Shown here one piece after another: positions 9,984 to 60,090 of a stretch of 64,000 bases of DNA. Source of the DNA: Eledone cirrhosa (lineage: Eukaryota); the NCBI GenBank assembly GCA_964016885.1, contig OZ024743.1:168268001-168332000 (forward strand), given 5' to 3'. Every line of letters starts with the position of its first letter. The stretch's first letter is position 1. Made by a program: the position numbers and the translations under genes. Under the pieces are notes generated by a model. That model ran no database searches, was not told the DNA's origin, and was given only the letters and a program-made list of their open reading frames with translations.

Positions 9984-10039
<56 letters not shown>

Positions 10040-13376: not shown

Positions 13377-13612
13377 CACACATAAAATATACAGTACACA
13401 CATATACATAGAAAAGTGTATACATACAAATGAAATAATTATCTTATTTTGTTTATTACATAATAAGCTCTGTAACCTACATAGAGCACTCTTTTTTCGT
13501 GGACCTTTCCGACGGAATTACCACATTTATATATATATATATAATATGGTAAAATGACAGGAGGCTGGGCAGGTTTACTTCTACCCAGTGGTGAACCACC
13601 AAATTTAAGCGT

Positions 13613-13670
<58 letters not shown>

Positions 13671-13674
<4 letters not shown>

Positions 13675-14721
13675 ATAATATTAATAAATGGAAACTATCT
13701 TTATAAAACCATATTTATTTTATTATATACTAGCAGCTGTACCCAGCGTTGCCTGGGTAGGTAAAATAATATCTGCTTTGATGAAAAGGTGTTGATCTTA
13801 GTGACCGCAAGTTTCTTGAAAATCAGTCGTAAAGTGTCGCAGATGGCGAAATGTTGAGGGAAATCGTATGGAATATGTGGGAGTGGAAAAAATCGTATTT
13901 TGAAGAGTTAAACGGCTGCCACGCCGTCCCTGAGCAAAAAATACAAAGTGTAAAGCTACTATAAGATGTGCAATGATAGGTTCTATCGTAGTATAAAAGT
14001 TGTACCAAATAAATTGATTTATGTGTGAGGTGGAGCCATAGTTTCGAATTTGAACGAAATCGGTTGAAAAATGTGGGAGTTAGAGCAGAAAAGGCGGAAA
14101 TTTGAGCGAAAAGGTGGTATTTTCGAATATTTAAGCGGCTACCACGTCGTTCCTGAACAAAAAGGCTTTAAGACGTGAAATAATCAGATCTAGCGTAGTG
14201 TAAAATTTGAACAAAGTAGGTTGATTAATTGTGGGAGCTAGAGCCGAAAAAGTGGAAATTTGAGTCTAAAAGTGGTACTTTTGAATATTTAAGCGGCTGT
14301 CACGCCGTCCCTGAACAACAAAAAAATATAAAGTCATTACAGGATGTGCAATGATTAATTCTATTTTTCTTTAAAATTTGAACGAAATCGGGGGCTAAAT
14401 CTGGGGGCTAGATCCAAAAATCTTATTTTTCGATACCTAAAAAAAAGTGACACACCCTATCGATTTTTATCTGCAGAATGACCCCGGAATAAAAAAAGCG
14501 ATACGATATATAGAAAACACTCCCCGATGACTAATCATGAAAATCGGTCGTAAGATATAGGCCCCTATAGGTAATACACAGACACACAGACACACACACA
14601 CACATACTTAATTTTATATATATACAGATATTTCAAGGGTACCAAAATACTGGTACCCTTGAAATATATATAATAAACTAAATATGGTTTTATAAAGATA
14701 GTTTCCATTTATTAATATTAT

Positions 14722-14725
<4 letters not shown>
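13671..14725. repeat. Fold-back palindrome centred on hammerhead stem II, split by a Helitron
   Basis: 13671-13729 plus 14629-14644 is the reverse complement of 14651-14725. The centre is aagggtacca-aaatac-tggtaccctt, followed by GAAA. Confidence 0.85.
13730..14628 (-). mobile_element. Non-autonomous Helitron
   Basis: Minus strand reads A|TC...CTAG|T with hairpin acccaggcaacgctgggt before CTAG. Removing it restores the host palindrome with no TSD. Internal degenerate tandem repeats of about 170 bp. Confidence 0.88.
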
Positions 14726-14760
<35 letters not shown>

Positions 14761-14885
14761 GAGGTTATATTTAATTTGTTGGGATTCAACAAGCTTAACG
14801 TTTTTTAGATTATCCAGGAAGCTCCAACTATTAAGGTTGTCTTTTTTCCGGGTATGTCAATATTTATTTATAAAACAAATCTGTA

Positions 14886-14947
14886 TTTTATCTGATGAAA
14901 GCGCACCATAATTTGCCTTGGTTGCCCTTGAAATATATATAATAAAA
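14886..14947 (+). ncRNA. Minimal hammerhead ribozyme motif
   Basis: ttttat CTGATGA aagcgcacca..tggttgccctt GAAA tatata TA ataaaa. Perfect 6-bp stem I and palindromic stem III loop. Confidence 0.8.
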
Positions 14948-15104
14948 TAAATATGGTTTTATAAATATAGTTTCCATTTATTAATATATTGCATATATAT
15001 ATATATATATATATGTGTGTACTCTTAAATTTGGTGGTTCACCACTGGGTAGAAGTAAACCTGCCCAGCCTCCTGTCATTTTACCATATTATATATATAT
15101 ATAT

Positions 15105-16546: not shown

Positions 16547-16653
16547 GAAAAAGTATGACCCGACGGCAGAGCTGAAGCCGTTTCGACGGTTATTTCTGTC
16601 CAGAAATAGCCGTCGAAACGGCTTGAGCTCTGCCGTCGGGGTCATACTTTTTC
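16547..16653. repeat. Palindrome (about 50-bp arms) in a (TA)n-flanked element
   Basis: Centre gacggttatttct-gtcc-agaaatagccgtc, followed by GAAA cggc TT. The right arm and its extension match the reverse complement of 40952-41092. Confidence 0.9.
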
Positions 16654-17036
16654 ATATTTCCCACTCTACTACCCTAAATATTGAGTACTCCGGTGCGTTA
16701 TGGTCCATCCGGTTCCTTACCACAATTCCTTCATTATATATATATATATAAGCAAGAAAGTGTTGGTAAAATCCAGTACTTCAGTATGCGGATAGGGAGC
16801 ACTCAACGAAGATATAGGTTCCGGAGTTATAATAGTAACGAAACATAAGTCAATGATAACCATTCAATGGCTATCATCGAAATATATATATAGCAGTAAA
16901 TAAAGGATTATGAGTTCATGCAATTGACTTATATATATGTATCGTGTTGCCCCCCCCCCCTCTCCGAAAAATACACTCACCTGTTGGTTTTCAATTCAAT
17001 TTATTATAAATTTCCGGTAGGTTGTTTCGATAACCG

Positions 17037-17076
17037 GAAGGTCTTTCGTTACACATTCTGTGACCTCCTCAGTGAC
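17037..17076 (-). ncRNA. Hammerhead-like motif, 3' strand of stem I lost
   Basis: Minus strand: gtca CTGAGGA ggtcaca-gaa-tgtgtaac GAAA gacc TT. Same family as 42054-42096. Confidence 0.55.
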
Positions 17077-17318
17077 TAGGTTTTTATTTTGTCTGTCTCT
17101 CCTTTGATCTGTCCTACACCATTTTGTTATTGTGTGCTGTGTCTTTGTGCTCAGTTTGAGCATGCGTTACATTCGGGGGAGGGGGTGGGTGTATGTGTTG
17201 TTTTATTTATGTGTTTATTTACTTGTTCTATCTGTGTGTGTCTGATTTGTTTTGTTAGTTTAGTTTTTGTATGTGTTTATATATCTTTAGTTTGTCCTTA
17301 ATTACTAGTTTTCTGTGT

Positions 17319-17555
17319 AATTTTGCCATTGGCGTTAGCATTGCAGGTGACATAGTTAACCTCATTATGGTATGGTGGGACAGAAGACTTATAGGAACAA
17401 TTAGACGACAATTTTATTATCCTAACTATGTACTCTCGCTACATAGATGACATAAACATCATAGTAAAAACACCCCCACAGGAGAACAGTCAGGAATTAG
17501 AGGAGAACACCATGGAAAGCATCCAGCAATTAGGTAACTCCATAAACAATCTTCC
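17319..17555 (+). pseudogene. Penelope-like reverse transcriptase fragment
   Basis: Hand translation gives NFAIGVSIAGDIVNLIMVWWDRRL, then after a frameshift RYIDDINIIVK. These resemble the PLE RT GxAMG..ANL.M and RYIDD motifs. Confidence 0.7.
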
Positions 17556-17926
17556 GGTTATCGAACCAACCAAATAAATATATTTGGGAAAATATATGAC
17601 GAGTATATATACAATATAGAAATTAAAATAATATCTAAACATAGAAATGACTCATCAGGTAGGCAAATCAGAAAAGCAACTGAGATAGAGCTATGAAGAC
17701 CAAAAAATGAATGGAATAACAACAACCATACCCAATCAAACAATACTGACTTAAGGGAAATATAAATAAATAAATAATTATATATATATATACACACAAG
17801 TACAATAACAACAAACATAAACACACACTAGTAAACAAAAATAGAATACAAAAACACATACACTCAAACACGCACACCAAACATTATACACACACGCAAA
17901 CGCATGCGCAGAGTCGGAAACAATAA

Positions 17927-17981
<55 letters not shown>

Positions 17982-18028
17982 AATTAAAATGGCGTAGACA
18001 TACAATACAATAGGAGGAAACATAATAG

Positions 18029-18072
18029 TACCACTGATGATGTTGCAGATGTGCAAGGAAAGAACTTTGATA
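18029..18072 (+). ncRNA. Minimal hammerhead ribozyme motif
   Basis: tacca CTGATGA tg-ttgca-gatg-tgcaa-g GAAA gaac TT tgata. Confidence 0.62.
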
Positions 18073-18213
18073 GACTATATATATATACTTATATCTCTAT
18101 TTTTAACCGTTGGTCAATCAATGGTAAACGTTGATTGCCAAATAAATTAACTATGGAGATAAAAAAGATACAGAAGCGAAAACCAACCAAACAGTGAGTG
18201 TGTTCTGTTATTA

Positions 18214-18664: not shown

Positions 18665-18846
18665 AGTGGGAACCCCTGCATTGAGACACTGGAAGAGGAA
18701 GACCAAGGTTAACGTATGTTGATGCCCTAAGGACAGACACTCGTCTGTTGGAGACGCAGGACATGGCAGCGATAATGAGGGACAGAGACTGCTGGAGCGA
18801 ACTCGTCCATGGATCTCGGGAATTTTACCCGCCCTAGATAGATAGT
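18665..18846 (+). mobile_element. Short 3' end of RTE/RTEX-like LINE
   Basis: Matches 10660-10838 and ends acccgccctagatagatag. Confidence 0.8.
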
Positions 18847-18911
18847 GGTAGAACACTGGAAGGTAATATCTGTAGTGGTAGAGCACTCAGTCCATGAGAC
18901 GAGTTAGGTAT

Positions 18912-19040
18912 AAGTGGTTACACAACAATTAGTTCACCATACCGAGAACAATTGTTTCACTTTAGCGGATCCTCACCTCGTATCCGCTAAGGTGAAACAA
19001 TTGTGCTCGGTATGGTGAACTAACTGTTGCGTAACCACTT
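18912..19040. repeat. Palindrome (about 58-bp arms) next to (TA)n
   Basis: Centre hairpin ttagcggat..atccgctaa, then gtGAAA caattg T. Confidence 0.9.
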
Positions 19041-19231
19041 CTATATATATATATATATACGGGGTAACAAATAATAGTTAAATGCAGTCCACTTAGGTAA
19101 AGTCCAGTTATGGTATTCCAGGTAGTGGATGTTATTAACGCTTGGCTTGGTTTGACTCAACAAGGCGTTTTCATAGTGATGCTGCGGGAATGCCGTAATT
19201 CCTATGTTGTAAACACTTGGAGTAATAATAA

Positions 19232-19416
19232 ATCAGGAAAGAAGGTTGACATGGTTTGCTATACAAAAAAGGTTTTTAATCTCATAGCTGACAATTGTTT
19301 CTCTGAACGTGAAAATAAGCGAATAGCGATCTCTAGACCTACCAGTTCAGAGAAACAATTGTCAGCTATGAGATTAAAAACCTTTTTTGTATAGCAAACC
19401 ATGTCAACCTTCTTTC

Positions 19417-19421
<5 letters not shown>
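19232..19421. repeat. Inverted repeat with 77-bp arms and 36-nt spacer, next to (TA)n
   Basis: 19232-19308 is the reverse complement of 19345-19421. The arm starts gttcaga GAAA caattg TC. Confidence 0.93.
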
Positions 19422-22680: not shown

Positions 22681-22729
<49 letters not shown>

Positions 22730-22761
22730 TACACGGGTGTGTATGATTGTGTATAGAAGAT

Positions 22762-23146
22762 TATATTAATAAAAGGAATTCCAACTTTGTCTGATTTACT
22801 CATTTTATTTACAATCCTTTAAAATTTATAATGGTATTAGAATGAAATAGTATGGTAGAATATTAAATGTTAAGTGTTAATTGAACAAGTACTTTCATGC
22901 TTTCGCAATCTTCAGGTTCATATTGTGTGGTGACAGTCAAGTTTGCAATTTCAGTCGACAGTTGAAAATTGCAAACTTGACTGTCACCACACAATATGAA
23001 CCTGAAGATTGCGAAAGCATAAAGTACTTGTTCAATTAACACTTAACATTTAATATTCTACCATACTATTTCATTCTAATTCCATTATAAATTTTAAAGG
23101 ATTGTAAATAAAGCGAGTAAATCAGACAAAGTTGGAATTCCTTTTA

Positions 23147-23154
<8 letters not shown>
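22762..23154. repeat. Long palindrome (about 190-bp arms) between (TA)n tracts
   Basis: Arms are near-perfect reverse complements around gtcgaca at about 22955. Confidence 0.95.
22882..22920 (-). ncRNA. Minimal hammerhead ribozyme motif
   Basis: Minus strand: tgaac CTGAAGA t-tgc-gaaa-gca-t GAAA gtac TT gttca. Perfect 5-bp stem I and palindromic GTAC loop. The mirror copy at 22997-23034 lacks the G of GAAA. Confidence 0.78.
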
Positions 23155-23190
<36 letters not shown>

Positions 23191-23308
23191 TCAATATAGA
23201 AAATCTCCTGCAGGACTAGAACTGTTTCATTCTTGAGAAATCCTCAGGAAGCCTACTTCCTGATAATTTCTCACGAATGAAAAGCTTTTCTAAATTAAAA
23301 CATTTATA

Positions 23309-32029: not shown

Positions 32030-32650
32030 TAATTGTTTCTTGTTTAGGCACAAGGCCAGCAATTTATAGAGATGGGGAAAATCAATTAAAACGCCCCCTA
32101 ATGCATTACTGGTGCTTTATTTTATCGACAATCGTAAGGATTAAAAACAAAGCTAACCTCGGTGGGATTTGAACCGTAAAGGGGTGTAAAACTATGCTGC
32201 AAATCATGGCGTCCAACCCTTAATAATAACCGTTATTATTAGTAGATTGGCAGTATCGGTAGAGGGTCGGACATGCTTTCCAGCATAGTTACGTACCTTT
32301 ACGATCTGAGTTCAAATCCGGCCGAGGTTAACTTTGCCTTTCATCCTTACGGGGTCGATAAAATAAAGTACCAGTAATACATTGGGATAATTGCTGGCCT
32401 TGTGCCTAAAGTAGAAACAGTTATTATTATCATCAACATCACTATCATAATGACAATTATAATAATAATTGTTTCTACTTTTGGCACAAGGCCAGCAATT
32501 ATCCCAGTGCATTACTGGTACTTTATTTTATCAACCCCGTAAGGATGAAAGGCAAAGTTAACCTCGGCGGGATTTGAACTCAGAATAGCAAGGGCCGTAA
32601 CTCTATGCGTCAAAGCATGGCGTCCGACCCTCTACTGATACTGCCAATCC
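32030..32650. mobile_element. Cluster of three family A SINEs (-, +, -)
   Basis: Copies at about 32030-32220 (-), 32245-32425 (+) and 32466-32650 (-). Confidence 0.85.
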
Positions 32651-41157: not shown

Positions 41158-41440
41158 AATATAAAAGGAAATTTCGCTCTACATGGCTGAATACAATAAA
41201 TGTAATCTGAGTTTTTCGAATATTAATAATTGTTTCTACTTTAGGCACAAGGCCAGCAATTACCCAGTGCATTACTGGTACTTTATTTTATATATTAATA
41301 ATAACATTCGATTCGTTTGCAATTATTCAAACAACCCACAATTTTATAGACATGTCAGTTGTGTTGGCATGCGAACAGAACTGCAGGCACTAATGTTACT
41401 GGGTATCACCCTGCATAATTGCAAACGAATCGAATGTTAT

Positions 41441-41790
41441 ATCAGTATCGGTAGAGGGTCGGACGCCATGCTTTCCAGCATAGTTACGTCCCTTTACGAT
41501 CTGAGTTCAAATCCCGCCGAGGTTGACTTTGCCTTTCATCCTTACGGGGTCGATAAAATAAAGTACCAGTAATGCACTGGATAATTGCTGGCCTTGTGCC
41601 TAAAGTAGAAACAATTATTTGGCAGTATCGGTAGACGACATTCTTTCCAGCATAGTTACGTCCCTTTACGATCTGAGTTCAAATCTCGCCGAGGTTGACT
41701 TTGCCTTTCATCCTTATGGGGTCGATAAAATAAAGTACCAGTAATGCACTGTGTAATTGCTGGCCTTGTGCCTAAAGTAGAAACAATTAT
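41441..41790 (+). mobile_element. Two tandem SINE family A copies
   Basis: Copies at about 41441-41618 and 41619-41790. Confidence 0.9.
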
Positions 41791-41888
41791 TAATATTCGA
41801 AAAACTCAGATTACATTTATATATATATATATTTCGTTTCTGAATTTGTTTAGCAAGATTCTTTATCTGAAAACGTGTGTTGAAACCG

Positions 41889-42344
41889 ATATTGTTATAC
41901 TTTGGGAGGGTCATGTTGCCAATAAGAAACACACGCACCAGTTGCTTTCACTCCAATTTATTATAAATTTTAAAAAAAATTATTTATTTTTTTAATTTAT
42001 AAATTTTCGGTTGGTTGGTTGGTTGGTTCCACAACCGGGGTTGTTCATATATTGTCAAAGTTCTTTCGTCTCACATTCTGTGACCTCTTCAGTGACTGGG
42101 GAATATTTTCTTTGTTTCGTGCCTCTCCTTTGTTCTGTCCTACGCCATCTTCAGATGTGTGACGAAAGAACCGTGACAATATATGAACAACCGTCCGGTT
42201 ATGGAACCAACCAACCAACCGGAAATTTATAAATAAGAAAAAGAAAAATGTTTTTAAATTTTTTAATTTATAATAAATTGGAGTGAAAGCAACTGGTGCG
42301 TGTGTTTCTTATTGGCAACATGACCCTCCCAAAGTATAACAATA
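41889..42344. repeat. Inverted repeat with about 190-bp arms, Penelope-pLTR-like
   Basis: 41889-42080 versus 42151-42344. Related sequence at 16965-17120, 18410-18495 and 35120-35275. Confidence 0.9.
42054..42096 (-). ncRNA. Minimal hammerhead ribozyme motif
   Basis: Minus strand: gtca CTGAAGA gg-tcaca-gaa-tgtga-gac GAAA gaac TT tgac. Perfect stem I. Confidence 0.75.
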
Positions 42345-59019: not shown

Positions 59020-60090
59020 TTTTCTTTCTCTCTGTCTAATCCGATTCAAATTATTTGGCAGTGAATTGGTGGTCGGTTTTGTTTTGTTTTGTTTTATGTT
59101 TCCATTTGTTTTTATTTATTTCTCTCGCTCTTCTCGTATATTTCGGTGCGTTAAATTTGTGAGGTTCCTAGCAGTTATTATTTGAGGTTATATTTCCATT
59201 CTAGGATGTATTCCACCATAACAGCACACACTGCTTTCCAGCATCATGGATTAAACTGTGAGTTAATGCCGCGAATGTTTGACTATTGGGTAATCAGATA
59301 ATCCAAGCGTACAATCATCAATGTAGATATGGATAGAGTCTAGTGGATTTTAGAATGTGTTAGAAGTGAGGAAGCAGAGTGGTAAATGTTTAAGATAAAA
59401 ATTCATTAACTCAAGACGGTTGGTATCTGTACGGCTCTCATTCAATGGGATGAAAAAGCCTGTAAATGGGTATGCTTGCTCCAAGGAATGGCATAATATT
59501 AGCATACCACATACATACGTGCATATGCGTGTTGGTATGTCAAATAGACACATATATATGTGTATATCCGTGTGGGAAACAACACGTGTTGGTTTGTTTT
59601 TAATTTTTATTTCTTCTCTCTTTCTAATGCGATTCAAAAAAGTTATTTGGCAGTGAATTGATGGTCGTTTTTTTTTTTTTGTCCCCTTTCCTTTTTATTT
59701 TGTTTCTTTCTCTCGCCCTTCGCGTATATTTTGGTGCGTTATATTTGTGAGGTTCCTATCAATGGTTAATAACATTTAACCTCGGCGGGATTTGAACTCA
59801 GTTACGGCCCTTTATGGTCTGAGTTCAAATCCCGCCGAGGTTAACTTTGCCTTTCATCATTACGGGGTCGATGAAATAAAGTATCATTAATGCACTGGGA
59901 TAATTGCTGGCCTTGTGCCAAAAGTAGAAATAATTATTTTTTGTTATCTTTCCATTCTAGGATGTATTCCATCATAGCAGCACATTCTGATTCCAGGAAT
60001 CTTGTATTAGACAGTGAATTAATGCCGCGAATGTTTGGAACGTAGAAGTATTTGAGTAATGGGTAATCCAAGTGTAAGATCATCAATGTA
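59020..60090. repeat. Tandem duplication of about 310 bp (59020-59330 / 59608-60090), second copy carrying a SINE
   Basis: Colinear match, interrupted in copy 2 at about 59765-59938. Confidence 0.85.

Follow-up and report, generated by a model that had tools for sequence, protein, structure and literature searches.

The palindromes found beside (TA)n tracts in a 64-kb window of the Eledone cirrhosa genome (the whole stretch of DNA analysed) are probably single short insertions of Hydra-type Penelope-like elements (PLEs) in (TA)n. At a probability that we put at roughly 60%, their two arms would be two separately primed cDNAs of one short sense RNA, with the axis at or downstream of the likely start of that RNA. 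The element is of a known kind, and the wall of arm starts at this site, together with the statistics of short and tail ends, is a useful result. An earlier note on this DNA had proposed that hammerhead stem II is where the cDNA folds back and primes its own second strand, and that the ribozyme fold thereby sets the breakpoint.

The element and its copies at the locus

The family of the palindrome and its neighbour (family A) was followed with a 30-nt anchor, which has 35,383 exact matches in the 3.0-Gb assembly. Long copies (L169-L174) contain reverse transcriptase (GLYRDD) and endonuclease pieces, interrupted by stops and frameshifts, and carry inverted anchors on both flanks. They show the order typical of EN+ PLEs, RT followed by a GIY-YIG endonuclease, and the inverted 5' pLTR copy with a tail at one end is also present. 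Their motifs are DKT, RWR (not RWK), CNCRDRSKC, CDLC and CKH, with no CCHH and with a single C inside the GIY-YIG core. The available part of the Hydra clade description gives DKT, RW(K/R) and a CxCX5C linker, and towards the end of the endonuclease CxxC and CxH; CCHH is absent, a hammerhead is present and insertion is in (TA)n (Craig et al., 2021; PMC8557442). On this comparison of motifs family A would be a Hydra-type PLE, and a Neptune label used before it was replaced. Unlike the described clade members, the element here has a very high copy number and a tail of about 90 nt rather than 30-40 nt. Look-alikes in the ESM Atlas, mostly molluscan or cnidarian, scored 0.93-0.97; RVT_1 on 12-42% and GIY-YIG on 23% of their members are to be taken as leads only. 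Pfam and PDB sequence searches with pieces of the element gave no match, and among the loci examined no native copy continued past the tail end into the ORF (as a partial tandem pLTR-ORF or with an intron acceptor).

The suggestion of the earlier note that the palindromes are MITE-looking pieces of PLE pLTRs was borne out, the sequence being the end of an RT-bearing element. A true MITE, a fixed unit with identical terminal inverted repeats that is copied whole, was rejected: the centres vary among copies, the two ends differ and the parent sequence bears an RT. Non-LTR retrozymes, as defined in the accessible part of a recent preprint (bioRxiv 10.64898/2026.07.22.740005), consist of head-to-tail tandem hammerhead monomers, whereas the units here are dispersed and head to head.

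A putative minimal type I hammerhead motif lies at 14882-14949 on the plus strand. A strict motif scan found CTGATGA at 14892-14898, GAAA at 14930-14933, an 8-bp stem I and a palindromic stem III, and the core 14892-14933 is its sole match in the window. The motif is of the minimal, dimer type with an imperfect stem II, and all features of the PLE-type minimal hammerhead I are present (CUGAnGA and GAAA cores, stems I and II, palindromic stem III); PLE pLTRs carry hammerheads of this kind (PMC4209133, in the part available). The motif had been called an intact hammerhead at 14886-14947, which holds for its letters. The hammerhead fold was absent from the single-strand (monomer) folding prediction (z -0.69), and no hammerhead family appeared among the 150 Rfam matches listed of 161, which were microsatellite-driven miRNA look-alikes only.

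This motif belongs to an insertion at 14758-14991 that had been taken for the parent of the palindrome beside it. Its stem II is unlike that of the palindrome, which places it in another subfamily (A1), and it is itself 5'-inverted, with a junction about 80 nt upstream of the ribozyme. Two kinds of 3' end occur in these copies, a short end that stops at site 1 and a tail end that runs on to site 2. The first 40 nt or so of the A1 insertion (14758-14799, minus strand) are an inverted tail: other copies (L022, L029, L030) carry their reverse complement beyond site 1. The sense arm (14811-14991, plus strand) begins at +3 of an initiator-like site, contains a DPE-like GGTTG at 14835-14839 and a donor-like GT at 14852, and terminates at site 1. 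Judged by its sequence, the neighbour is a separate later insertion and not the parent.

The palindrome itself (subfamily A2, 13673-14723) is real, and its axis lies at a stem II loop as had been noted. It follows an (AT)26 target microsatellite at 13621-13672. Perfect 17-bp inner arms (14628-14644, minus strand, and 14651-14667) surround the native A2 loop II, AAATAC, at 14645-14650 on the plus strand. The inner left arm is the reverse complement of the stem II 3' strand and GAAA, and its last 6 nt, GTACCA, are common to the native 5' strand. The right arm (14651-14723, plus strand) comprises the stem II 3' strand, GAAA, stem III and the stem I 3' strand, and ends at site 1. The outer left arm, also running to site 1, is found at 13673-13729 on the minus strand, within a remaining match at 13639-13729 (91 nt, 99%). 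Native A2 copies among the 30 best matches read CTGA(T/C)GA-(G/T)AGCGTACCA-AAATAC-TGGTACCCTT-GAAA; the join therefore lies inside stem II, at the shared GTACCA, with the native loop retained. Between the two parts of the left arm lies a dispersed mobile element of 898 bp (13730-14627), a later insertion that the earlier note had missed; it has more than 20 near-full-length copies with the same ends at 84-90%. From its terminal motifs we take it to be a non-autonomous Helitron/HINE-like element. It contains internal repeats of about 160 bp, and a first look gave 1,835 candidates genome-wide. Contigs of four public runs over 13675-14722 were dominated by other repeat copies.

Also missing from the earlier note was an outer inverted repeat (13529-13640 and 14993-15104; 112 nt, 98%) that encloses the whole region. 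Each of its arms includes 79 bp from a further PLE-like family, a mini-insertion whose junction is unique; the copies, at 13538-13616 (minus strand) and 15017-15095 (plus strand), show one difference. All 35 of 35 candidates were scored, and at full length these are its only two sites in the genome; its halves are separate parts of one dispersed family. Without the two later insertions the locus reads (TA)n-flank'-(TA)n-arm'-loop II-arm-(TA)n-flank-(TA)n. Among 113 sampled family A palindromes none had a duplicated flank (one script match proved to be two family B copies), and only two had two short ends, as the A2 palindrome has. The short/short ends and the duplicated unique flank fit a true fold-back, so that the A2 palindrome is likely a rare exception, and fold-back at stem II would be the simplest account of this locus alone. 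A DNA end would have paired on itself at stem II, synthesis would have returned through the arm and then through 79 bp of flank to rejoin in the next (TA)n, and two subsequent insertions would have split the palindrome.

For this locus alone, a possible if somewhat doubtful alternative is that the flank was duplicated outside the insertion event. It could have come through RNA, if a source copy, local or since lost, was read through and the transcript primed in the downstream (UA)n, or from the later repair of a DNA break in which the fold-back occurred at stem II. A-family copies bear their own likely promoter, and a single difference each between the arms and between the flank copies fits any single event. 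The RNA route, however, calls for priming outside both usual sites, and a source copy of the flank was not found elsewhere in the assembly. A sequencing artefact is an unlikely source of the outer duplication: the arms differ by substitutions and by two independent insertions.

Breakpoints relative to stem II

Inverted pairs of a 16-nt family A anchor were binned by the gap between the two GAAA anchors, a count in which a few loci enter twice; reversed-pattern controls gave 0. Gaps of 4-45 nt, which place the axis in stem II, held 279 pairs, those of 46-87 nt 562, those of 88-255 nt 9,996 and those of 256-423 nt 1,383, corresponding to 6.6, 13.4, 59.5 and 8.2 pairs per nt of gap, respectively. 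Axes had been expected to be enriched in stem II; this zone was the emptiest per nucleotide, with 279 of 12,220 pairs. It follows from the gap counts that most palindromes bear two whole hammerheads back to back.

Within the shortest class, exact stem II joins were more frequent than expected. The first 50 matches listed yielded 45 parsed palindromes, 42 of them with a close native reference, and 12 of these 42 were exact joins, against 2.9% under a naive null of uniform independent ends (p ~2e-9). Extrapolated genome-wide, this amounts to about 80 of 12,220 pairs (0.65%). All 12 had one short and one tail end, and the native loop was on the short-end arm in five, on the tail arm in five and ambiguous in two. 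A like bias was seen in family C at GGATCC (3 of the first 50 matches listed). Stem II therefore appears to act as a minor, roughly 10-fold local microhomology bias, as any self-complementary patch would, and does not set the breakpoint.

The other families of the window gave a similar picture. Family B has 18,656 inverted pairs, with gaps of 7-62 in the first 50 listed, which resembles the geometry of the earlier note; but its native copies (5,916 arms) have a loop II of about 34 nt, and one true stem II product was found by a pattern search in which some loop variants were missed. In family C (1,046 pairs) and family E (939 pairs) the stem II gaps, 11 and 18, respectively, occurred in none of the first 50 listed, and in family D one of 29 pairs is consistent with a stem II join. 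One condition that the earlier note had named as refuting its rule is found in family B: none of 20 non-palindromic copies has CTGAnGA, although a few others carry one (two seen). Breakpoints are not spread uniformly; they are concentrated at the initiator-like site rather than at the ribozyme.

Four further palindromes of the window had been read as having the same stem II geometry, and none of them does. The family B palindrome (16547-16733, plus strand; short end left, tail right), noted before as 16547-16653, has its axis at 16599-16600, at an initiator-like site on the 3' side of the ~34-nt loop II, and the native 5' strand and loop are missing. In the family C palindrome (18843-19042; tail left, short end right), noted as 18912-19040, the two arms are separated by the CTGAGGA half-core itself, which bears one change and reads on the minus strand. 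The family D palindrome (19060-19421; tail left, short end right), noted as 19232-19421, is joined by a 3-nt microhomology, AAC, within a large loop II of about 60 nt. The family E insertion (41834-42344), noted as 41889-42344, is asymmetric: its long arm retains the entire hammerhead plus about 60 nt and reaches a motif that we presume to be YY1-like, and by eye family E long arms tend to begin just before this motif.

The fold-back reading thus keeps the A2 locus, where the native loop, the 6-nt overlap, the short/short ends and the duplicated flank all fit, and the roughly 10-fold excess of exact joins that is confined to the shortest class. Against it stand the small number of family A pairs in the stem II zone, the single product in family B and the counts in families C, D and E (0/50, 1/29 and 0/50). 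The exact joins themselves are all short/tail, with the loop side split evenly. As a general rule it does not hold across the genome, and we regard it as highly improbable.

Other repeats of the window were seen in passing. Copies of family D (L191-L205) have CCGA(A/T)GA hammerhead variants in place of CTGAnGA, and the ~60-nt loop II occurs in one subfamily. Palindromes of a further family in which a hammerhead core is not obvious lie at 1667-1761 and 22718-23198, and palindromes of SINE pieces at 32287-32602 and 59776-59844 (tail to tail; around the tRNA-like head). The stretch 16980-18080 is a more extended PLE-like fragment that includes part of an RT and whose inverted ends resemble those of family E. 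A tRNA-like SINE lies inside the AT-rich end of another PLE-like family, in both inverted arms (41196-41820; L104, L355, L358, L368), so the PLE likely took it along. That the SINE forms a lineage which a PLE mobilises was rejected: of 20 copies of this tail, only 2 have the SINE directly upstream. The SINEs of the window presumably resemble octopus SINEs.

The wall at the initiator-like site

The arms of inverted units share a sharp upstream wall, and with equal bin widths the pair count drops 7-fold beyond twice the distance from anchor to wall. Arm starts of family A were placed for 207 of 286 arms, those with a reference of at least 85%: none fell at -20..-6, 57 at -5..+10 and 34 further upstream (references included), in a pool that includes loci picked by similarity. 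In the unbiased set, 5 of 14 truncated arms begin at -5..+10, and many junctions lie well downstream of the wall. In 25 native family A copies, one of them mis-anchored, the wall coincides with an initiator-like site that precedes GAAA by 110-128 nt. Of these references, 23 have a DPE-like motif at +27/+28 and 19 a donor-like GT at +40..+46; the latter is missing in four subfamily A2 references. The references were chosen by eye and are mutually related, and the initiator was found by a motif search in the expected window, with Inr, DPE and donor consensus motifs that we assumed.

In family B, 103 of 107 arms (49 of them from loci selected by another pattern) begin at -3 or downstream of an initiator-like site on the 3' side of loop II. 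This family has the initiator-like site only: position +28 lacks a DPE-like motif, and a donor at +45 is not conserved. Native family B copies (L299-L301, L331-L350) have the start-like site inside loop II, and their upstream half-core is mostly decayed; such decay is expected if short transcripts exclude it.

The spacing of the Inr-, DPE- and donor-like motifs is that of the Drosophila virilis Penelope promoter. There, as far as the available part of the paper goes, a TATA-less Inr and DPE lie inside the pLTR and an intron begins 46 bp after the mapped start, with the donor (~45 nt after the start) kept in copies (Schostak et al., 2008; PMC2377424). The start was mapped by experiment in that system, whereas here it is deduced, and in family B it would lie inside hammerhead loop II. 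From these motifs and the wall, the wall is likely the transcription start, that is, the RNA 5' end. By eye, an extra G of the kind that a cap would leave was present in 40 of 100 and 43 of 100 cases, a base that the partner arm can also supply; the two counts used the first 100 listed of sets of 10,886 and 472. T runs or short fillers just before the wall were seen at many loci in families A and B, which suggests untemplated additions as the RT runs off the RNA end.

It is quite unlikely that the wall is instead an RT stop or an RNA processing site, whether by structure, by cleavage or, in family B, at a 3' splice site. Such a reading draws on the start being known from sequence motifs and on the family B wall lying in the inner hairpin of loop II after a pyrimidine-rich TTTAG. 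The published Penelope spacing of the family A motifs speaks against it, as do the distance between the wall and the hammerhead cut site and the lack of a fixed upstream exon joined in family B.

Two ends, two arms and known insertions

A short end paired with a tail end is nearly the rule. In family A 108 of 113 palindromes were short/tail (93 by script, 15 by eye), two were unclear, two short/short and one tail/tail; in family B the figure was 40 of 42. Both samples are the first matches on contigs C1-C2 and are non-random. Among 39 pairs in which the reach of the arms differed or tied at a resolution of at least 8 nt, the short-end arm extended further upstream in 12 and the tail arm in 10, with 17 ties, so that a former statement that the short-end arm is usually longer was dropped. 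Junctions vary between copies, with overlaps of 0-4 nt or short fillers. The arms of a pair came from two subfamilies in none of 34 cases, which removed such chimeras as a proof of two RNAs, and in 17 of the 34 the arms showed 0-1 differences. In five of the 34 both arms were nearer to other copies than to each other. The same-subfamily arms favour one RNA copied twice; for these five pairs in particular, two RNAs may have been used.

Under the two-cDNA reading, a promoter inside the pLTR would give a short unspliced sense RNA, and the endonuclease would open both strands in (TA)n. Each break end would then prime cDNA synthesis at a different one of the two start sites. The second cDNA would either stop in the tail, giving a tail-only inversion such as 14758-14799, or displace the first and continue, and the cDNA 3' ends would be joined blunt or by microhomology. 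Stem II would be one self-complementary patch that favours joins when both cDNAs are very short. In the anole Poseidon PLE studied in vitro, two RT start sites bound the tail, both strands are cut and extended, hammerhead cleavage is dispensable and a dimer is predicted (Frangieh et al., 2024; PMC11167929, in the part available). That element belongs to another clade, and its second-strand and 5' joining steps were left unresolved.

A competing reading is a single cDNA that is primed at site 2, reaches the RNA 5' end and snaps back or switches onto itself, its second strand being cut or stopping at site 1. The axis would still mark the RNA 5' end. One-subfamily arms, the 17 pairs with 0-1 differences and the many near-symmetric axes at the wall agree with it, and self-priming has been proposed for PLE insertions before (PMC3846280, in the part available). 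It leaves the many tail-only inversions and the 12 of 39 pairs with a longer short-end arm unexplained, and it requires a precise cut at site 1. Those 12 pairs and the tail-only inversions cannot have arisen from one cDNA folding on itself, and we regard the single-cDNA route as unlikely. The two-cDNA reading has a difficulty of its own: the tail arm and the short arm are each the longer one at similar frequency, and the second cDNA is not visibly cut short more often; part of the set could be explained by a tail-first fold-back trimmed at site 1.

In L1 twin priming, credited to Ostertag and Kazazian (2001), each end of the broken target is said to prime on the RNA, and a microhomology join of the cDNAs gives the inversion. 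The L1 cDNAs cover adjacent parts of the RNA, whereas here they usually cover the same part, which gives a palindrome, and both start sites are fixed.

Insertions of EN+ PLEs with inverted pLTRs and a tail are the closest published relatives (Arkhipova et al., 2013, PMC3846280; Craig et al., 2021, PMC8557442). The parts of these papers available share with our units a head-to-head, 5'-truncated inverted copy, a tail at one end, palindromes at the junction, a TCACT initiator-like motif and (TA)n targets, and self-priming on a possibly antisense template was proposed (PMC3846280). The published cases are single copies read as self-priming, whereas thousands of pLTR-only units are found here, with an axis bounded by a sense-strand initiator-like site and about 95% short/tail ends. 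The origin of inverted and tandem PLE structures was called undefined in the accessible part of one of them (PMC8557442). A repeat paper on O. vulgaris lists PLEs, and palindromes were not found in the part available (PMC13282606). In the Penelope-like and pLTR literature searched, with most subscription papers outside it, no publication was found that states either a rule for stem II or one for the start site; supplementary material of PMC8557442 and PMC11167929 may bear on this.

Such a start-site rule can be put forward tentatively, at a little under even odds. Every pLTR would fire a short unspliced sense RNA, and a PLE dimer would make two copies of that one RNA, beginning at a different fixed start site for each end of the break. 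Tens of thousands of MITE-looking hairpins in this genome would then record the RNA 5' end at single-base resolution. The start of family B would have shifted into loop II, with the 5' half of the ribozyme left untranscribed and decaying.

More than 30,000 short inverted units from two families form a large natural read-out of PLE insertion. The wall at the likely start and the near-obligate pairing of short and tail ends offer a concrete, testable model, and stand against a ribozyme that shapes the breakpoint. In repeat annotation these units are liable to be mistaken for MITEs or miRNA-like hairpins. If true, the start-site rule would settle whether the template is sense or antisense, a question open since 2013.
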